64,000 nucleotides of DNA from Verrucomicrobiota bacterium (GTDB lineage Bacteria > Verrucomicrobiota > Kiritimatiellia > SS1-B-03-39 > UBA6053), in NCBI GenBank assembly GCA_020831625.1, contig JAFIGD010000001.1:139296-203295 (forward strand), given 5' to 3'. Under the pieces are notes generated by a model. It was not told where the DNA came from. It saw only the letters and a program-made list of their open reading frames with translations, and did no database searches. Below, in pieces: positions 4,970 to 53,455 of the stretch. Position numbers and translations under genes: made by a program. Every line of letters starts with the position of its first letter. The stretch's first letter is position 1.

Positions 4970-5758
4970 ATGGCGTCCAAAAAAACCAAAGTCGTGGATG
5001 GATTCACGGCCATCCGCGCGGCCCAGGAGGCCGCCCCGCCTGGGCCTGGAGCCCCAATGCGCCCCGCTGCCCCCCAAAAACCCGCCCCCCCCCCCCCCCC
5101 CCCCCCCCCCCCAACCCGCGCCCGCATCGGCAAATCCGTGCTCCCCTCCAAGCGGGAAATCATCTGCCCCCAATGCGGCTACGTCTCCGAAGTCACCGGC
5201 AAACTCCAGCTCTTCGTCTGTCAGGGCTGCCGACACCGGATGAAACTCGACGATGTCACCCTCCCCGAGGGCGACTGGTCCGCAGAGATTGAAACCGGCG
5301 GCGATGTCACCGTTCCCGCCGGAACCATCCTCAAAGGCGGAAAAATCACCGCCAATGATATCCATCTGCACGGGAAAATGGAAGGCGCCGAACTCCGCGC
5401 CAGCCGCCGCATCCGCGTCCATAAAGGCGCAGTTATCGACTGGGTCCGCGCCAACTTCCGCGATCTGGAAATCGGCCCCGGCCTCAACATCACCCCCGGC
5501 AAACCCCTCGACGCCCGCAACATCGAACTCCACGGAGCCTTCTGCGGCAACCTCCGCCTCACCGGCACCCTCACGATTCATCCCCCCGGCGACTTCTCCG
5601 GTCAGGTCCGCGCCGCCGGCCTGACCGTCCACGAGGGCGGCGGCCTCCGCGCCTCGCTCGACATTAACCCCGAACACGCCCCGCCCCCGCAGCCGCCGCA
5701 ACCCAAATCCCCCAGCCGCCCCCTCCGCAAATCCCTCACCCCTCCGCCCAAACCATGA
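4970..5758 (+). CDS. Bactofilin-domain protein with an N-terminal proline-rich linker and a CxxC..CxxC zinc-ribbon
   Basis: 262 aa. It has a zinc ribbon (ICPQCGYVSEV...FVCQGCRHRM), a bactofilin-like repeat core (VTVPAGTILKGGKITANDIHLHGKMEG...IELHGAFCGNLRLTGTLTIH) and proline-rich termini. A poly-C tract encodes P9. Confidence 0.7.
   Translation: MASKKTKVVDGFTAIRAAQEAAPPGPGAPMRPAAPQKPAPPPPPPPPPTRARIGKSVLPSKREIICPQCGYVSEVTGKLQLFVCQGCRHRMKLDDVTLPEGDWSAEIETGGDVTVPAGTILKGGKITANDIHLHGKMEGAELRASRRIRVHKGAVIDWVRANFRDLEIGPGLNITPGKPLDARNIELHGAFCGNLRLTGTLTIHPPGDFSGQVRAAGLTVHEGGGLRASLDINPEHAPPPQPPQPKSPSRPLRKSLTPPPKP
5085..5112 (+). repeat. 28-nt homopolymeric C tract inside the bactofilin-like CDS, encoding a poly-Pro run
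   Basis: Counted directly: C at every position 5085-5112, followed by AA. It is in frame in this assembly (KPAPPPPPPPPPTRA). Confidence 0.9.
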
Positions 5759-7053
5759 TCCCGCCCGGCGCTCACGTCCACATCAGCGGGGTCGGCGGTG
5801 TCGGCATGAACGCCATCGCCCAGCTCCTCGCCGCCGACGGCTGCCGCGTCACCGGCTCCGACCGCTTCCTCGATCAGGGCACCCGCCTCCCCGTCTTCGA
5901 CGCCCTCGAAGCGCAGGGCGTCACCCTCGTCCCCCAGGACGGCTCCGCCCTCACCGCCGACACCGCCGCCCTCGTCATCAGCACCGCCGTCGAAGACACC
6001 AACCCCGAACGCCGCCGCGCCCGCGAACTCGGCATACCCGAACACCACCGCGCCGCGATCCTCGCCGACTTCGCCCGCCGCGGCCCCCAGATCGCCATCG
6101 CCGGCACCAGCGGCAAAACCACCTGCACCGGCTGGCTCGGCGTCGTCCTCGAACACTGCGGCCGCAACCCCAACGTCGTCAACGGCGGCGGCATCCTCAA
6201 CTGGAAATCCCCCGCCGCCCCCGGCAACGTCCGCCTCGGAGCCCCCGGCAACGAATGGGTCATCGAAGTCGACGAAAGCGACAAAAGCCTCCTCCGCTTC
6301 CACCCCGACACCGCCGTCATCACCAGCATCACCGCCGATCACCATTCCCTCGCCGACACCGTCGCCCTCTTCCGGCAGTTCGCGCAACAGGTGAAACACC
6401 ACCTCGTCTGCGGCCCCGGCGTGCGCCCCCACCTCGAAAACACCCCCGGCCTCACCGCCGAACTCCACGACATCGGCCCGCCTCTTCCCGTCCGTCACCC
6501 CGGCGAACACAACCGCGTCAACGCCGCCATCGTCGCCCGCCTCGCCGAATGCCGCGGAATCGACCCCGCCGCCGCCCGCAGCGCCCTTGATGCTTTTCAG
6601 GGGGTCGAACGCCGCCTCGAATCCCGCACCCCGCCCGGCGCCCGCCCCCGCGTGTTCGACGACTACGCCCACAATCCCGAAAAAATCGCCGCCGCCATCC
6701 GCGCCCTCCAGGAACCCGGCGAATCCCTCATCGTCCTCTGGCGTCCCCACGGCTTCGCCCCCCTCCGTCAAAACTTCGACGCCCTCGCCGCCGCCTTTGC
6801 CGACACCCTCCGCGCTCAGGATGAAGCCTGGATCCTCCCCGTCTTCTACGCCGGCGGCCTCGCCCCCAAAGGTATCGAAGGTGCCGACCTCGCCGACGCC
6901 ATTCAACAGCGCGGCACCAACGCCCGCGCCCTCGCGGACTATCCCGAAACCCTCGACCTCCGCCCCGGCCAAACCCTCCTCGTCATGGGCGCCCGCGACC
7001 CCGAACTTCCCGCCTTCGCCGGCCGCGTCGCCCGACACCTCCGCCAGCCGTGA
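5755..7053 (+). CDS. Mur ligase family protein (MurC / Mpl-like UDP-N-acetylmuramate ligase)
   Basis: 432 aa. The N-terminus reads HISGVGGVGMNAIAQLLAADGCRVTGSD, the P-loop reads IAIAGTSGKTTCT, and EVDESD is present; these match MurC/Mpl motifs. It shows ATGA start/stop overlap with the upstream bactofilin gene (5755-5758). Confidence 0.75.
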   Translation: MIPPGAHVHISGVGGVGMNAIAQLLAADGCRVTGSDRFLDQGTRLPVFDALEAQGVTLVPQDGSALTADTAALVISTAVEDTNPERRRARELGIPEHHRAAILADFARRGPQIAIAGTSGKTTCTGWLGVVLEHCGRNPNVVNGGGILNWKSPAAPGNVRLGAPGNEWVIEVDESDKSLLRFHPDTAVITSITADHHSLADTVALFRQFAQQVKHHLVCGPGVRPHLENTPGLTAELHDIGPPLPVRHPGEHNRVNAAIVARLAECRGIDPAAARSALDAFQGVERRLESRTPPGARPRVFDDYAHNPEKIAAAIRALQEPGESLIVLWRPHGFAPLRQNFDALAAAFADTLRAQDEAWILPVFYAGGLAPKGIEGADLADAIQQRGTNARALADYPETLDLRPGQTLLVMGARDPELPAFAGRVARHLRQP

Positions 7054-9059
7054 ACACCCCGGAGACCTTCTGGCTCTTCCCCGCCCTGCTTTGGTGCGCC
7101 GGGCTCCTCCTCCTCGCCCTCGCCCTCTGGCCCTGCACCGCCCGCCTCTTCGCCGGACTTCCCGACCGCGGCGCAAGCCTCGCCCTCCCCGGCGGCGTCT
7201 TCGTCTACCTCCTCGCCGCCCAGCTCCTCTGGCGCACCCGCCTGCTCACCCTCCACCCCGCCTGGATGGGCCTCCTCGTCCTCGCTCTCGGCACCCTCGG
7301 CTGGACCCGCTTCCCGCCCGCGCCGCTTCTTCCCGACCGCAAAGCACTCCGTCCCGCCCTCCTCGTCTTCACCCTCGCCTTCTTCTTCTGGGCCGGCGTC
7401 CGCGCCGCCGCCCCCGGCATCCACCACACCGAACAGCCCATGAACCTCATGTGGATGCGCGCGGCCATGACCGCCCACACCCCGCCCATTCCCGACGCCT
7501 GGTTCGGCGGCGCCCCCGCCACCTACTACGCCGAAGGCCACCAAATGCTCGCCTTCCTCGCCCACCTCTTCGGCACCCCCGCCGGCCTCGCCTACAACCT
7601 CGGTCAGGTCACCCTCTTCGCCCTCACCTGCACCCTCGCCTACGCCGCCGGAACCCACCTCCTCCCCGACGATCCCCGACCCGCCCGCACCGGAATCCTC
7701 GCCGTGTCCCTTCTCTTCATCTCCAACCCCGCTGGAGCCCTCCACGCCCTCGGGCGCGACCTCCCCCACGCCTGGTGGTGGAACAGCACCCGCATCCTGC
7801 GCGACGGCGACACTGAACTCATCACCGAATTCCCCTTCTTCAGTTTCTGGCTTGGCGACAACCACGCCCACCTCATCGGCCTCCCCGTCCTCCTCCTCTC
7901 CTTCATCGCCGCCCTGCAGCTTTACCAAAAGCGCCCCGCCGGATTCGCGGACGGATTTTTCACCGCCCTCCCCGCCGGGCTCGCCCTCATCTGGAGTCTA
8001 TGCGTCAACCCCTGGCAGGCCCCCACCGCCCTCGCCCTCCCCCTGCTCGCCCTCCTCCTTCATCCCTCCCGCACCCCGCCCAACCGCGCCGTGCTCGCCG
8101 GACTCCTCACCCCCCTTCTCCTCATTTCCCCTCTCACCGAAAGCACCCCCTTCCAGGGCATCGCCCTCAACACCTTCGGACTCCGCCCGCCCCTCGATCT
8201 CCTCAAACACTTCGGCTTCTTCCTCCCCGGACTCCTCCTCCGCCCCCGCAAACACCCCCTCCTCTTCGCCATCCTCCTCCTGGCCCTCGCCATGCTCCTC
8301 ACCCCCGAAATCGTCTACGCCCGCGACGCCTTCGGCACCCGCATGAACACCGTCTTCAAAGTCTACTACCAGGTCTGGCTCCTCCTCGCCCTCCTCGCCG
8401 CCGCCGGCCTCACACACCTCACACGTCACTCGTCACTCGTCATTCGTCACTCGTCATTCGTCACTCGTCATTCGTCACTCGTCACTCGTCATTCGTCACT
8501 CGTCACTCGTCATTCGTCATTCGTCATTCGTCACTCGTCACTCGTCATTCTCCTCGGTTTGCTCTATCCCCTCCGCCTCGCCCTCCCCGCCTGGAACCGC
8601 GCCCCCCGCACCCTCCACGCCGCCGCCGTCCTCCCCGCCGATCAGCGCGAACTCATCGACATCGCCGACCGCCTCATCCAGCCCGGCGACCGCATCCTCG
8701 AAGCCCCCGGCACCGCCTACGACCCCCATACCAGCCTCCTCGGCACCTGGACCGCCGGCCATACCCTCCTCGGATGGACCGGACACCAGGCCCAATGGCG
8801 TCCCGGCGCTCCACACCCTGACATCCTGCCCCTTTTCTCCGCCGATCCGGGAACCCTCCTCAACACCCACAACATCCGCTGGATTCTCATCGGCCCCGCC
8901 GAACGCGCCCTCACCACCCCCGAATGGCGCCGCCGGATCGAATCCCAAAGCCACACCCCCGTCCAAAACGCCACCTACCAGCTCCACCAACTCCGCAGAC
9001 TTGAAGACACCCTCCCCGCCGAAGCCCGGGTGGAGGACTCCATCGCGGATATTTTGTGA
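7050..9059 (+). CDS. Polytopic membrane protein of the DUF2298 (chlor_Arch_YYY) type, carrying an internal heptanucleotide-repeat-encoded (TRHSSLV)n insert
   Basis: 669 aa with a GTG start overlapping the Mur ligase stop. It has multiple TM helices. The motif HHTEQPMNLMWMRAAMTAHTPPIPDAWFGGAPATYYAEGH resembles the DUF2298 signature (TEKPMD...NYYYFGH). The family assignment is from memory. Confidence 0.5.
   Translation: MNTPETFWLFPALLWCAGLLLLALALWPCTARLFAGLPDRGASLALPGGVFVYLLAAQLLWRTRLLTLHPAWMGLLVLALGTLGWTRFPPAPLLPDRKALRPALLVFTLAFFFWAGVRAAAPGIHHTEQPMNLMWMRAAMTAHTPPIPDAWFGGAPATYYAEGHQMLAFLAHLFGTPAGLAYNLGQVTLFALTCTLAYAAGTHLLPDDPRPARTGILAVSLLFISNPAGALHALGRDLPHAWWWNSTRILRDGDTELITEFPFFSFWLGDNHAHLIGLPVLLLSFIAALQLYQKRPAGFADGFFTALPAGLALIWSLCVNPWQAPTALALPLLALLLHPSRTPPNRAVLAGLLTPLLLISPLTESTPFQGIALNTFGLRPPLDLLKHFGFFLPGLLLRPRKHPLLFAILLLALAMLLTPEIVYARDAFGTRMNTVFKVYYQVWLLLALLAAAGLTHLTRHSSLVIRHSSFVTRHSSLVTRHSSLVTRHSSFVIRHSSLVILLGLLYPLRLALPAWNRAPRTLHAAAVLPADQRELIDIADRLIQPGDRILEAPGTAYDPHTSLLGTWTAGHTLLGWTGHQAQWRPGAPHPDILPLFSADPGTLLNTHNIRWILIGPAERALTTPEWRRRIESQSHTPVQNATYQLHQLRRLEDTLPAEARVEDSIADIL
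8424..8549 (+). repeat. Heptanucleotide microsatellite CGTCA(C/T)T, 18 tandem copies (126 bp), inside the DUF2298 CDS
   Basis: Counted unit by unit. The C/T variant order is ACT,ACT,ATT,ACT,ATT,ACT,ATT,ACT,ACT,ATT,ACT,ACT,ATT,ATT,ATT,ACT,ACT,ATT. The unit length is not a multiple of 3, and the total of 126 bp keeps the frame. Confidence 0.9.
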
Positions 9060-33149: not shown

Positions 33150-35093
33150 TTACTTTTTCCTTACAGACAGGGTGTTTTTTCTTATGTTCAGTTTGGGCTT
33201 TATTGCAGCCCTGTAGGCTTGATCCACCCGATTAGGCTTGTCCGGATATTTCAGGAGCAACAGCCCATGCCGAACCATTGATGTTAAGAAACGTTGCCGC
33301 AAACCATCCGGATTTCGGTTTAACAGGGCAGCAATTTGGGATCTGGTCAACCAGTGTTCACTGCAAATACTTAAAATAATCCCTTCCATCTCCTTTGTTT
33401 CCAGTCGCTTGCAGGATCTGGAAACCTCCGCTAAATTATAGAGTTGCTCCAGTGTGCCTCCGTCCAAGTCTGGAAAAACAGTGGCAAGTTTGTTTATGAC
33501 CTCCTCTTGTATACGTACGGAGTGATCATCCTTACCTACGGAGTGATCGCCCTTACGTACGGAGTGATCGCCCTTACGTACGGAGTGATCGCCCTTATGT
33601 ACGGAGTGAATATCCTTGTGTGAGAAGTCAGTAACAGGCGTCAGTTTATACCTCGTCCATCTTCCCTGTCCTTGCTGTTGCAGAAACCCCTCACCTGTAA
33701 GCTTTTGTAGGAGCTGGGTCACATCAGATGCATGCAGCCGGGTAATTTGCCGCATGCGGGCGTTATCTACCCCCCCTTCTATATCCGCAGTCACCAAAAC
33801 TTCGACTTCTTGTTTCGTGCAACCGTCAAAGCGTTTGCCAAATTGCTTTTGCAGGCGGGATAAGGATTCCTCCGGTATGAGACTGACCATCGGCAATACC
33901 CACTCCACCCGATCAGGCTGTACAGTCTCCCGTACAGTTGGCGAGCGCCAGTGTTGTGATTCCCAACCACGGCGGATTTTATCAACACCGGATCCTGCCC
34001 GTTCCGCCAGACCCAACTGGGTAAACATTTTCTGCAAGGACTTATTACGGCACTCACTGACATTTCCACGCAGTAATTGATCCAATGAAATAAGCAACAT
34101 GCCAGGATTGGAGAAAACAAAACGATCCCGGTATTTCTCTATAACAATGCCGCCCTGTCCCTGATAATCGGCATGAATCAAGGCATTGACCAAAGCTTCA
34201 CGAATTGCCTCATGGACAACGCTCTCCCCTTTGCGAAAAAGATTCGCATCCAGTTGAAAAGGCAATTTAATGTCATCCGAAAGCCGCTGAACCACCCGCA
34301 AGTAAAACTGAAAAAGGTTCGGAGGCCATGTCCCGTCCATCATCAGCCTGTCCGTGTAACGGACATCAGGGTCATCGGAGAATTTTTCGCGGTAATCAAC
34401 ATGATAATCAGGAAGAGCCTCCGTTATCGTCTCCTCGCGCCCAAACATAAGAAGCCCGGCGATCGTCAGTCCTTCCTTCTCTGTTTTTCGATCCTGACGC
34501 CAACCGCCCAACTTTGATAACAGCCCTATATCATCTTCACTCAACCAGGGATGCGTTGGCTTATGTGAACCAAATCGCTGCCGGAACTGCTGTAAACTTT
34601 CCCGGTCAAGATCCTTGAGACCGAATCCTTCCAGAATTCGACTGTCTGCAGGTGCCTCCGCCCGGTCTGAAAGCATTCGCCCCACTTCCTGTTCCGTACA
34701 GTGATAGTCGCCTTCGTAATTCCTACGGTAGGTTCCTGTGAGCGGGTTTTGATCCAAATACACCGGACGTTGCTGTCGGGAGGCCCTGGGAATCCGAATC
34801 GCAAGAATATTCTTATCCTCAATCCGAACTTCCTCAACATCCACGTCCGTAAGCAGATTCAGGCTGACTTTGGACCGGTTATTTATCGTGTCCCAAAAAG
34901 ATTTCTTAAGTTTGGAAGTATTCTCAACCCCACATACATTTCCATTATCTTCAACACCCAACAGAACCACTCCACCATTGGAGTTTGCCAACGCACTGTA
35001 ACTCTCCCATAAACTTTTAGGCACACCGCCTTTGGCAGCCTTGAATTCCAAATCTTCACATTCCGTCCAATCAAGGCGACTGAGAAGGTCCAT
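33150..35093 (-). CDS. Schlafen-like ATP-binding protein, COG2865 type (AlbA_2 plus HATPase_c_4 plus C-terminal wHTH), inserted between mod and res
   Basis: Start chosen at the ATG at 35093 (MDLLSRLDWTECEDLEFKAAKGG). The HATPase_c_4 signature reads REALVNALIHADYQGQGGIVIEKYRDRFVFSNPG. It contains a 7-aa tandem repeat linker. It has lower G+C than res and the flanking mod segments. Confidence 0.7.
   Translation of the reverse strand: MDLLSRLDWTECEDLEFKAAKGGVPKSLWESYSALANSNGGVVLLGVEDNGNVCGVENTSKLKKSFWDTINNRSKVSLNLLTDVDVEEVRIEDKNILAIRIPRASRQQRPVYLDQNPLTGTYRRNYEGDYHCTEQEVGRMLSDRAEAPADSRILEGFGLKDLDRESLQQFRQRFGSHKPTHPWLSEDDIGLLSKLGGWRQDRKTEKEGLTIAGLLMFGREETITEALPDYHVDYREKFSDDPDVRYTDRLMMDGTWPPNLFQFYLRVVQRLSDDIKLPFQLDANLFRKGESVVHEAIREALVNALIHADYQGQGGIVIEKYRDRFVFSNPGMLLISLDQLLRGNVSECRNKSLQKMFTQLGLAERAGSGVDKIRRGWESQHWRSPTVRETVQPDRVEWVLPMVSLIPEESLSRLQKQFGKRFDGCTKQEVEVLVTADIEGGVDNARMRQITRLHASDVTQLLQKLTGEGFLQQQGQGRWTRYKLTPVTDFSHKDIHSVHKGDHSVRKGDHSVRKGDHSVGKDDHSVRIQEEVINKLATVFPDLDGGTLEQLYNLAEVSRSCKRLETKEMEGIILSICSEHWLTRSQIAALLNRNPDGLRQRFLTSMVRHGLLLLKYPDKPNRVDQAYRAAIKPKLNIRKNTLSVRKK
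33513..33617 (-). repeat. 21-bp tandem repeat, 5 copies, in frame within COG2865 gene 1; encodes (KGDHSVR)n
   Basis: Units ACGTACGGAGTGATCATCCTT / ACCTACGGAGTGATCGCCCTT x3 / ATGTACGGAGTGAATATCCTT were counted at 33513-33617. Confidence 0.85.
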
Positions 35094-39059: not shown

Positions 39060-39440
39060 GATTTAAGGAGTCCAACCCCATTTCCTGATCACTCCGGGAA
39101 AAATGAGTCGTTCCGACGCTCGAAAAAGGACCGGCATGATTTTCCGAACGTCGGAACGTTGGACTGGACCATTTCAAGGCTCGGAGGCAAAGCGGAAAAG
39201 CATCAGTGTCCACCTTCCCGCAGTGCTACGCGCAGCGTTGCAGGCGGGTCAGTGTCATCAGTGGTTTTCCCTCACCATACCTAAATCCCTTCCGCCCAGG
39301 CACAGAGGATAGGTATCAGTGTTCATCAGTGTCATCAGTGGTTTTTCTCCACCGCACCTTGCCCCTCCACCCAAGCACGGCGGACAGGTAGATATCCGTG
39401 TCCATCCGTGTCCATCCGTGGTTCTATTCTTCCGTGCCCC
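39060..39440. repeat. Mosaic of short interspersed repeat families X, Y, Z and W in non-coding DNA downstream of the 128-aa ORF
   Basis: X element: ccaaccccatttcctgatcactccgggaaaaatgag (also at about 36815 and about 39000). Y element: palindromic hairpin gttccgacgctcg...cgtcggaac (39098-39148; also 46662-46710 and 61985-62035). Z element: cccgcagtgctacgcgcagcgttgcaggcgggtca...tcagtggttttcc (also about 37180-37235). W elements: two units of cacRgMggaYaggtatcagtg...atcagtggttttt, the same family as the 52745-53455 array. Confidence 0.8.
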
Positions 39441-45046: not shown

Positions 45047-46555
45047 TCAGGATTCGATAAATTCGAGTCCCTGGGACGTAAGGCGATATTTTTGTAAAGG
45101 ACTTTTCGGTTTTTCCGGAAGCGTCATTTCCACCAAGCCGCATTCAAGCAACGGGATCAAATGCCGTTTATAGTTTAAATAAGCATTGGCCATCCCTATA
45201 GAGTGAAACAATTCAGCTTTGTTTTTCGCTCCTGATTTCATTTCACGAAGCAACTTGTACCCCTGCTTACTCACTTGCTCACCAGCTTGCTCACCAGCTT
45301 GCTCACCAGCTTGCGTATTCTTTTTACGGTTTCGATCAGACACATTCGTTTCCTGATTTGTTTTCGATCCTTCTTTTTGCGACAGGCGACTCTGTTCCGG
45401 CATCAGGGTTAAAGCATTTTTTAAGAAGACGGTAACCCGAACCCGATTAGCCAGTTCTCTTATTTCAGGGTCCTTCAGCCCCAGATTTTCCGCCTCGCGG
45501 AATATACCGGGAATGCCGCTGCCCCATTGCTCAATAAAATCGAGTTCCTTAAACACACGTGCAATCACCGGATTCCTGATCTGAGAAACACCAAGTTTCA
45601 AATCCTCCGGTCGCAGACCCGGCAATAAAAGTCCGGGATTCTCAACTTCAATCCGATCATCATAAAACGCAACACGAACGGGTGTGCCTGTATGGGAATA
45701 ATCCGCATGAACCAAAGCATTGATCACAACCTCACGAAGAATGTTTATGGGAATACTCCAAAGATCTTTCCTGCGAACATCCGAGAAATCAGCCCCGCGC
45801 ATAGCGTGTTTCTTTAAAAACAACATGATTTCCGCCACAGATTTGGGCATGGGGTCATTGATTTCAATGTGATCAAAAATCACAGCTTTGTCCTGCCCCA
45901 TAAAACGGCCGCACTGTATCCATGCGTCGTCAAAATAACGGCGGCGGTTGAGTCCGTACAGCAAAAACCCGCCATGGCTGGGAACCAATTTCCCCTGATG
46001 AAGCACAAGGATTTTAAGACTTTGCATTTTCAGTTCATCAATGATTACGGTTGAAAAATCCTCCCGGATTCTTTCCAGATCCAAATCCTCAACTCCGAAT
46101 TGAGGCATCGGTAACGCATCAAAGCTTACACCTGCCGAACCTCTTTCCAGTTCTGAGATCAGCCGGGTGTCCGCCTGGCGGTTCGTGGCGCCTAACCTGA
46201 CATAAACCCCTTTTTCCATCCCTTCACTTTTTAAGTAATGCGGTCGCGTGTTGCTGGGAAAAACCTCAAGCAATAAAAGCGTTTTCCCGTTTACAGTGGT
46301 TAATTCGATATTTGGCACCAGGTGAGGGGCTATACAATCTGAAATTAAATTGCTGATTCGCTCCACTTCTCCCAGTGGATCTTGAACGCCCACCACATTA
46401 CCGTGATCATCCAGACCGACGATCACCCGCCCCCCGGCAGAATTAGCAAAAGCCACCAGTGTTTTCATCAGGGGTTTAGGTGAAGAAAGGTCACGCTTGA
46501 ACTCAAGCGTTTTACTCTCAGGATCCTTTAAAAGTTCTGGTATGGACAGGGACAT
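45047..46555 (-). CDS. Schlafen-like ATP-binding protein, COG2865 type (AlbA_2 plus HATPase_c_4 plus wHTH), paralog 2
   Basis: Start chosen at the ATG at 46555 (MSLSIPELLKDPESKTLEFKRD); the ORF-track start at 46600 is GTG. It reads LREVVINALVHADYSHTGTPVRVAFYDDRIEVENPG. It contains an (AGEQ)3 repeat linker. Confidence 0.7.
   Translation of the reverse strand: MSLSIPELLKDPESKTLEFKRDLSSPKPLMKTLVAFANSAGGRVIVGLDDHGNVVGVQDPLGEVERISNLISDCIAPHLVPNIELTTVNGKTLLLLEVFPSNTRPHYLKSEGMEKGVYVRLGATNRQADTRLISELERGSAGVSFDALPMPQFGVEDLDLERIREDFSTVIIDELKMQSLKILVLHQGKLVPSHGGFLLYGLNRRRYFDDAWIQCGRFMGQDKAVIFDHIEINDPMPKSVAEIMLFLKKHAMRGADFSDVRRKDLWSIPINILREVVINALVHADYSHTGTPVRVAFYDDRIEVENPGLLLPGLRPEDLKLGVSQIRNPVIARVFKELDFIEQWGSGIPGIFREAENLGLKDPEIRELANRVRVTVFLKNALTLMPEQSRLSQKEGSKTNQETNVSDRNRKKNTQAGEQAGEQAGEQVSKQGYKLLREMKSGAKNKAELFHSIGMANAYLNYKRHLIPLLECGLVEMTLPEKPKSPLQKYRLTSQGLEFIES
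45267..45314 (-). repeat. 12-bp tandem repeat (caccagcttgct, about 3.7 copies), in frame in COG2865 gene 2; encodes (AGEQ)n
   Basis: cacttgct caccagcttgct caccagcttgct caccagcttgcg, read at 45271-45314. Confidence 0.8.
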
Positions 46556-52744: not shown

Positions 52745-53455
52745 CGCCCAGGCACGGCGGATAGGTATCAGTGTCCATAAGTGTTATCAGAGGTTTTTCC
52801 TCTCCGTACTCTACATCCTCTCCACCCAGGCACGGCGGAAAGGCATCCGTTTTCATCCGTGGTTCCTCTCCACCGGAATTCAACCACTGATTCCACTGAT
52901 TTTCACTGATCCAGCACGACGGAAAAAATCGGGAATTCATTTCATAAACGCCATACACAATATCAACGTCCATCCGCAGGTACTCTCGACCACCCAAGCA
53001 CGGCGGAAAAGTATCAGTGTCCATCAGTGTTATCAGTGGTTTCTCTTCCCCGCACCCTAAATCGCTTTCACCCAAGCACGGCGGAAAGGCATCAGTGTTA
53101 TCAGTGGTTTCTTTTCACCGTACCCTAAGTCCCCTCCGCCCAGGCACAGCGGACAGGTATCAGTGTTCATCAGCGGCTCCTCTCCACCGGAATTGAACCA
53201 CTGATTCCACTGATTTTCACTGATCCAGCACGCCGCAAAAATTTGAGAGTTCATTTCATACATTCCATACATAAGATCAACTCCCATCCGAACTTCTCCG
53301 CCACCCAAGCACGGCGGAAAAGTATCAGTGTCCATCAGTGTTATCAGTGGTTTCTCCTCTCCATACCCTACCCCTCCGCCCAGGCACGGCGGAAAGGCAT
53401 CCGTGTCCATCTGTGTCCATCCGTGGTTAAACCAACCCTCTTATCACAGGCCTAC
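52745..53455. repeat. Degenerate tandem array of the W repeat family (about 55-bp core with three direct ATCAGTG heptamers), filling the whole convergent intergenic region
   Basis: Core: ccaRgcacRgcggaMaRgYatcagtgtccatcagtgttatcagtggtttctc. Units start at about 52753, 52831, 52999, 53077, 53145, 53310 and 53395, giving spacings of 78, 168, 78, 68, 165 and 85. Two units carry an insert of about 110 bp with three inverted heptamers (cactgattccactgattttcactgat). The whole arrangement is present as two copies of a roughly 305-bp super-repeat. Confidence 0.85.

Follow-up and report, generated by a model that had tools for sequence, protein, structure and literature searches.

The window analysed here, a stretch of 64,000 nucleotides (64 kb) from contig JAFIGD010000001.1 of a Verrucomicrobiota metagenome-assembled genome (MAG), carries at positions 7050..9059 a gene for a 669-residue membrane protein (followed by a stop codon) of the DUF2298/Chlor_Arch_YYY family, which is delineated by its open reading frame (ORF), its translation, a match to Pfam PF10060 and a predicted GT-C fold; like all features of this locus given below, the gene lies on the plus strand. 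Embedded in it, at 8424..8549, is an array of 18 exact, contiguous heptanucleotide units CGTCA(C/T)T, which is translated into residues 459-500 as six heptads of the type TRHSS(L/F)V(T/I) and is the subject of this report. The original prediction had described 18 copies of a 7-bp unit at 8424-8549 within the 669-residue DUF2298 gene and had held that all three frames of the tract encode an identical TRHSSLV-like peptide. Position, unit and copy number proved exact by pattern matching and Tandem Repeats Finder, the ORF at 7050-9059 and the Pfam score place the tract inside the gene, and translation bears out the peptide: all three forward frames yield one cyclic TRHSS(L/F)V(T/I) peptide, and all three reverse frames contain TGA stops.

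The array stands out sharply from its surroundings. Tandem Repeats Finder reports it at 8419-8547 with a period of 7, 18.4 copies, 90% matches, no indels and a score of 202, and the two-unit pattern matches 17 times in the window, overlaps included, whereas 100 dinucleotide-preserving shuffles give an expectation of 0.10 and never reach 17. Together with a homopolymer of 28 cytosines (C28), discussed below, it is the only simple-sequence repeat of note in the 64 kb, and it is the longest exact array among the 133 CGTCAYT arrays that we examined. The tract starts 1374 nt into the 2010-nt gene, that is, 68% along its length. Its GC content is 0.51, compared with 0.68 for the gene, and its serine codons, TCG and TCA, account for none of the 15 serine codons in the rest of the gene, where CGT and ACT are likewise nearly absent. 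The gene as a whole (7050-9056) displays a pronounced bias toward C-ending codons (CTC for 106 of 127 leucines, ACC for 44 of 47 threonines, CGC for 31 of 37 arginines; GC at third codon positions 0.87), so that its coding strand is strongly C-rich. Across the 126 nt of the tract, variation is confined to a single position per unit, which is C in 10 units and T in 8, in the order CCTCTCTCCTCCTTTCCT. The variants are further arranged in exact higher-order blocks of 14 nt (3.9 copies, 55 nt) and 21 nt (3.0 copies, 62 nt), which indicate recent multi-unit duplications. The confinement of variation to one position, the higher-order blocks, the low GC content and the foreign codons argue for a recent origin by slippage at the DNA level rather than by selection on the peptide. 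The longest perfect period-7 run measures 27 nt (3.9 copies), which exceeds the three-unit threshold applied to heptamers in PMC2651432 but falls far short of 18 pure units. No single-strand secondary structure was found for the tract DNA (z-scores of +1.4 and +1.7), which makes hairpin-driven expansion unlikely.

Since the contig belongs to a MAG, the precise number of copies and the succession of units may be unreliable for this 126-nt repeat, and mis-assembly might even account for the length of the repeat, the order of its units or its presence within the gene. Consistent with such an artefact are the MAG origin of the contig itself, the internal exact repeats of up to 62 nt, which are near typical read or k-mer lengths if the assembly was made from short reads, and the occurrence of the identical protein under two GenBank accessions (MCC5842730.1 and MCH8526331.1) that might stem from one assembly. 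However, the ORF passes through the tract without a break and continues in frame into the conserved C-terminal domain; the units show a specific C/T pattern and not a collapsed one; and both flanks align to an ortholog that has an array of its own at the same place on an independent 5-Mb contig from the Joint Genome Institute (JGI). We regard an assembly artefact as improbable.

The protein is a clear member of its Pfam family, with a PF10060 score of 225.9 bits (E-value 1.3e-66) against a cut-off of 27.8; the related NCBIfam model TIGR03662 (Chlor_Arch_YYY) gives 256.4 bits, which lies under its cut-off of 300.25. The conserved family motifs YYxxG, EFPFFSF and DNHAH are present. An AlphaFold2 model built with 76 homologs reached a mean predicted local distance difference test score (pLDDT) of 92.7 and a predicted TM-score (pTM) of 0.93, and its only significant PDB matches in Foldseek were enzymes of the GT-C class, namely STT3, ALG12, AftA, ArnT, DPY19 and AftD, all with a probability of 1.00. 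The match to STT3 (7oci_F) was at 2.6e-7, and the TM-scores of the GT-C matches were only 0.3-0.45. Judging from this model, the DUF2298 protein is predicted to adopt a GT-C glycosyltransferase fold and, since all significant PDB matches are GT-C glycosyltransferases, it is most likely a transferase of lipid-linked sugars in the cell envelope. In the literature library searched, there was no functional work on DUF2298 and no paper on the source assembly.

Within this architecture, the repeat falls between the last two membrane helices and ahead of the conserved C-terminal domain. The penultimate helix, VFKVYYQVWLLLALLAAAG, ending in …YYQVWLLLALLAAAG, together with a short native left flank, LTHLT, occupies 8352..8423, as judged from hydropathy and alignments, and its DNA flank is conserved with the ortholog locus; in the homolog alignment, F436, K437, Y439, Y440, Q441 and W443 are invariant or near-invariant at this helix. 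The last helix, likewise assigned by hydropathy and alignments, comprises residues 496-514 (SSLVILLGLLYPLRLALPA; 8535..8591), and its first five residues, SSLVI, are encoded by the final two repeat units. The soluble C-terminal domain (residues 515-669, 155 residues; 8592..9056), delimited by alignment and by frameshift simulation, contains the invariant residues G575 and W583 and the near-invariant W576, G578, H579, Q582 and R584. From the invariant W443 to the near-invariant Y506 there are 62 residues, compared with a median of 37 among homologs (interquartile range 37-39, range 30-65). Measured against these homologs, the repeat adds about 25 residues and takes the place of both the native turn and the first half of the last helix. 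The loop between the last two helices is normally short, although some family members can have a long one. In the loop encoded by the repeat there are six arginines, six histidines and no aspartate or glutamate. Loops of membrane proteins that carry positive charges tend to remain inside, and the C-terminal domains of GT-C enzymes are periplasmic; on these grounds, the repeat-bearing turn is probably cytoplasmic.

One might suppose that the peptide itself has been selected, with the number of TRHSSLV heptads grading the activity or the interactions of the enzyme, as conceivable by analogy with the poly-psi repeat of the acetyltransferase NeuO described below. All frames give the same heptad, so that in-frame alleles would differ in heptad number only; the arginines and histidines recall the positively charged heptad of NeuO (PMC3046976); and AlphaFold2 models the repeat as a continuation of the helices on either side (residues 432-467 and 479-515). 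However, pLDDT drops to 62-78 there, the lowest confidence of the entire model, the codon usage of the tract is foreign to the gene, a different peptide, SFDVRRS, occupies the site in the ortholog, and in all other homologs about 37 residues suffice for the turn from one anchor position to the other. A length-tuned functional peptide is, in our opinion, very improbable.

The consequences of a change in copy number are more drastic. The original prediction stated that gain or loss of one 7-bp unit shifts the frame and that only the sequence downstream of the tract is affected, and this holds for alleles of 12-24 units simulated in silico. The native C-terminus was obtained only at 18±3k units; alleles with n≡1 (mod 3) ended in 90 residues of proline- and arginine-rich junk and those with n≡2 (mod 3) in 179 residues of serine- and proline-rich junk, and both classes lost the last membrane helix together with the conserved C-terminal domain. 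Out-of-frame alleles would therefore be expected to lose function, and the tract is probably length-unstable and hypermutable. These properties invite comparison with the contingency loci of pathogens, and the tract might be a selected on/off switch in which slipped-strand mispairing toggles a GT-C enzyme and varies an envelope glycan, for example, in escape from phages. The length of the unit is not divisible by three, the unit is present in 18 copies and shows no decay outside its single C/T position, and glycosyltransferases include known phase-variable members. Nevertheless, neither the protein database nor metagenome contigs nor exact look-ups contained a second, copy-number variant allele, or truncated or frameshifted fragments of the gene, the nearest relatives in this search being 70% (proteins) and 41% (metagenome contigs) identical. 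Furthermore, the pure run extends to only 3.9 copies, and interruptions usually stabilize repeats; the tract also lies 68% along the gene, not near its 5′ end. On balance, we consider a selected switch possible but rather unlikely.

The most informative comparison is with the only close ortholog (P0002; 622 residues, 70% identity), which is encoded on a 5.04-Mb JGI contig (JGI 3300059090, Ga0573892_02). Flanked by the same well-conserved sequences as the window tract, this gene has a period-7 array of its own, consisting of (CGACGTT)x3 followed by decaying units (L002 7351-7389; 5.6 copies by Tandem Repeats Finder) and encoding the peptide SFDVRRS/TFDVQRS. The 13.9-kb ortholog locus contains no other period-7 array. 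The two unit types have five of seven bases in common in register (TTCGTCA versus TTCGACG), an agreement with a chance probability of about 0.09. Directly after its array, the ortholog reads TCATCACTCCTCATT (SSLLI), compared with TCGTCACTCGTCATT (SSLVI) in the window, and matches the last two units of the window at 13 of 15 bases, reading CaTCACT CcTCATT at the corresponding position. The remainder of the family, surveyed for repeats in 120 proteins and 24 loci, presents a different picture: no period-7 array was detected in the 23 more distant DUF2298 loci and no heptad-periodic peptide in the 119 other homologs, so that among the examined members of the DUF2298/Chlor_Arch_YYY family only the 70%-identical ortholog shares a nucleotide repeat with the window gene. 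As far as the sequences indicate, either a heptamer array at this site was inherited from the common ancestor, or the site is unusually prone to such arrays and permissive of them. We also considered an operon shared with the ortholog, but the gene neighbours differ and permit no operon inference.

An array at the same site with a partly matching unit is what a maintained switch might leave behind. Carried further, this line of thought would have the switch kept since before the two species diverged, its unit turning over between TTCGTCA and TTCGACG, and toggling a GT-C enzyme in a free-living bacterium of the Planctomycetes–Verrucomicrobia–Chlamydiae (PVC) group; we consider this extended version doubtful, and more so than a switch as such. 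In the ortholog, the array is short and degenerate, only 3-4 of its units being perfect, and the other DUF2298 homologs in the survey have no such tract, both of which speak against a selected switch.

A further question is whether the unit itself is special. A scan of species-representative genomes with (CGTCAYT)3 returned more than 119 loci, most of them with arrays of 3-5 units, in Verrucomicrobiota, Planctomycetota, Chloroflexota, Acidobacteriota, Cyanobacteria and Bacteroidota. Of 132 CGTCAYT arrays, about 75 lie between genes and a further 20 border on gene ends, although these coding and intergenic calls are crude and many of the apparent in-ORF arrays with a relative position below 0.15 probably arise from extension of the ORF in the upstream direction. 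The idea of CGTCAYT as a special cross-phylum motif was abandoned, as two composition-matched permuted heptamers are as frequent in viral contigs (47 and 65 versus 61 stretches). The unit may bear a resemblance to the cyanobacterial STRR2 repeat (TTGGTCA), on which no argument is based here. In 810 kb of unrelated loci (L003-L121), exact arrays of at least three copies numbered 186 for period 7 and at most 13 for each of the other periods between 4 and 12; this sample had been picked for CGTCAYT arrays, and 127 of the 186 consist of the seeded unit, but even the remaining 59, made of other units, outnumber the arrays of each other period. Heptamers dominate the repeats of the sampled environmental genomes, in agreement with Mrázek et al. 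(2007) as summarized in PMC4679880, where heptamers were likewise the most abundant class. A literature search with the heptamer strings returned primer noise only. One candidate for a second copy of the window locus, in Opitutaceae STL-VER4 (L068), turned out to be an unrelated intergenic (CGTCATT)15 array.

Short in-frame CGTCAYT arrays of 3-4 units also occur inside genuine genes (L075 3668-4390, L053 1786-5904, L107 826-3453, L034 1-2826, L073 5121-6788 and L041 1619-4444), mostly of the housekeeping type; the products are a type I dehydroquinase, an UvrA-like protein, an HrpB helicase, a Ser/Thr kinase, a Wzx-like flippase and a PTPS_related membrane protein. In the PTPS_related protein, which is polytopic, the peptide specified by the array is TRHSSLVTRHSS; it is flanked on both sides by a hydrophobic segment that probably spans the membrane, an arrangement that resembles the one in the window. 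Because most of the carriers are housekeeping genes, in-frame heptamer insertions seem to be a generally tolerated by-product of mutation, and the generic abundance of heptamer arrays, housekeeping genes included, counts against a selected switch: with such a background, the existence of the tract can be explained without selection. In several genomes, CGTCAYT arrays are organized in close inverted pairs or clusters that could form long intergenic hairpins (L003 5774-5837, L029 7641-7744, L047 2353-2721, L070 3795-3937, L087 2658-2792, L092 5217-5297, L106 1590-1677 and L113 3591-4205).

Known systems provide precedents for a coding heptanucleotide switch (PMC3046976; PMC7157529; PMC2651432), which lend some support to a contingency locus, but each of them differs from the tract described here in important respects. 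A close parallel is NeuO, the polysialate O-acetyltransferase of the Escherichia coli K1 prophage CUS-3, whose poly-psi variable number tandem repeat (VNTR) of AAGACTC units ranges from 2 to 93 copies among isolates and is on only at multiples of three (PMC3046976). In both cases, a heptanucleotide unit lies within the coding sequence, the full-length product is made only at multiples of three, three units correspond to one heptad with basic residues, and the target is an enzyme modifying a cell-surface glycan, in the present case by virtue of the predicted GT-C fold. However, the NeuO tract begins 2 nt after the start codon (PMC3046976), whereas that of the window begins 1374 nt into the gene and spans codons 459-500 of 669; the NeuO repeat is known from many copy-number alleles, whereas the window tract contains C/T variants and is known from one allele. 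The proteins are also dissimilar, NeuO being a soluble, left-handed beta-helix acetyltransferase encoded on a prophage and the DUF2298 protein a chromosomal, polytopic membrane protein with a predicted GT-C fold; and the heptads of NeuO form a disordered N-terminal extension, whereas those of the window are placed between two membrane helices and partly inside one of them.

In Neisseria, phase variation of the glycosyltransferase PglE is governed by a heptanucleotide repeat (PMC7157529), and in Haemophilus influenzae PittAA a mid-ORF (AATTTTG)14 tract in hmw1a is associated with a frameshift (PMC2651432), from which it follows that heptamer tracts deep within genes can switch expression. In both organisms, which are host-adapted pathogens, copy-number polymorphism has been documented, together with phenotypes in the case of pglE, whereas we deal with an uncultured environmental bacterium and one allele, and the enzyme families concerned are unrelated to DUF2298. 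A different point of reference is offered by the heptanucleotide repeats of free-living prokaryotes, including TAACTGA of Beggiatoaceae and cyanobacteria (PMC4679880), which, like the window tract, are 7-nt tandem units of non-pathogens with no special status of the unit; they are mostly intergenic and present in 2-6 copies, as opposed to 18 units within an intact gene. The host of the window is itself presumably free-living, to judge from the MAG origin.

We accordingly favour, with a probability of somewhat more than one-half (about 0.55), the interpretation of the tract as a young, slippage-made coding microsatellite (VNTR), probably unstable in length, that is tolerated in a cytoplasmic hairpin of a GT-C protein and gives rise to null alleles as a by-product. 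Under this interpretation, the array would have been built by replication slippage, including multi-unit duplication, and most likely would have grown from a native heptamer-like sequence at the site, an origin suggested by the CaTCACT CcTCATT of the ortholog opposite the last two units. Selection at the protein level would hold the copy number at multiples of three. Read in frame, the tract would supply TRHSSLV-type heptads that make the helical hairpin ~25 residues longer and form the beginning of the last helix; this extension might be tolerable since the peptide is rich in arginine and histidine and devoid of acidic residues. A slip of 7 or 14 nt would generate null alleles without the last helix and the periplasmic C-terminal domain, and slippage by 21 nt would change the length of the loop only, such that the locus would behave as a de facto stochastic on/off mutational site.

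Several observations weigh against this interpretation. Heptamer arrays at one site in two lineages that are 70% identical could signify selective maintenance, the enzyme belongs to a class of envelope glycosyltransferases typical of contingency loci, and 18 units are far above the 3-4 units of the in-frame arrays in housekeeping genes. In addition, a neighbouring gene in this co-directional cluster carries a second long, frame-shifting repeat, C28, at a distance of 3.3 kb upstream of the tract, which also counts in favour of a contingency locus. We nevertheless think it more probable that the tract is tolerated as a by-product of a general tendency of bacterial genomes toward heptamer arrays than that it has been selected as a contingency switch.

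The co-directional gene order of the cluster is bactofilin, bactofilin-like, MurC-like and DUF2298. The MurC-like Mur ligase gene (5755..7053) is located directly upstream of the DUF2298 gene, and its stop codon overlaps the GTG start codon of the latter (GTGA), which suggests that the two genes are probably co-transcribed. The C28 homopolymer (5085-5112) lies inside the ORF at 4970-5758, a gene for a 262-residue bactofilin-domain protein in which it encodes an in-frame run of nine prolines. Frequent slippage is to be expected in so long a homopolymer, and the number of cytosines that a MAG assembly gives for it is uncertain. The run could result simply from a polyproline stretch combined with the extreme preference for C-ending codons, or it might represent a second switch in a cluster of cell-envelope and cell-shape genes.

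Other repeats in the window are of different kinds. An interspersed intergenic family (39290-39425, 52884-52910, 52985-53190, 53198-53224 and 53295-53425) is composed of a conserved head of the CCACCCAAGCACGGCGGAAA type followed by three tandem 10-bp units (YATCMGTGTY), with inverted CCACTGATT triplets nearby; within it, Tandem Repeats Finder recognizes a 68-bp period at 52990-53189. The family looks like a small element related to repetitive extragenic palindromic (REP) sequences or miniature inverted-repeat transposable elements (MITE), or else like a cluster of binding sites. Two further tandem repeats are frame-preserving. The first, at 33512-33609, consists of 4.7 copies of a 21-bp unit (TACGTACGGAGTGATCGCCCT, 93% matches), and the sole long open frame across it, of 687 codons on the minus strand, would encode (K/R)GDHSV(R/H)-like heptads. 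The second, at 45274-45314, is a perfect 12-bp repeat of 3.4 copies (CTTGCTCACCAG) within a minus-strand open frame of 527 codons, where it corresponds to an (AGEQ)n peptide.

To our knowledge, phase variation is essentially unstudied in bacteria of the Verrucomicrobia/Kiritimatiellae type. If the copy number of the tract is fixed, the locus would provide a clean case of a heptamer microsatellite that has invaded and partly rebuilt a membrane-helix hairpin while leaving the gene intact, and of one site able to hold heptamer arrays in two diverged lineages. If the copy number varies, the tract would constitute a coding heptanucleotide switch in the style of NeuO and pglE, both in the DUF2298 family and in an environmental bacterium of the Verrucomicrobia/Kiritimatiellae type, and the gene would be marked as one whose product acts on a surface structure exposed to fluctuating selection, by phages, for example. 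Should such a switch moreover be a selected one, phase variation of the kind known from pathogens would extend to an uncultured environmental lineage and to the DUF2298 family.

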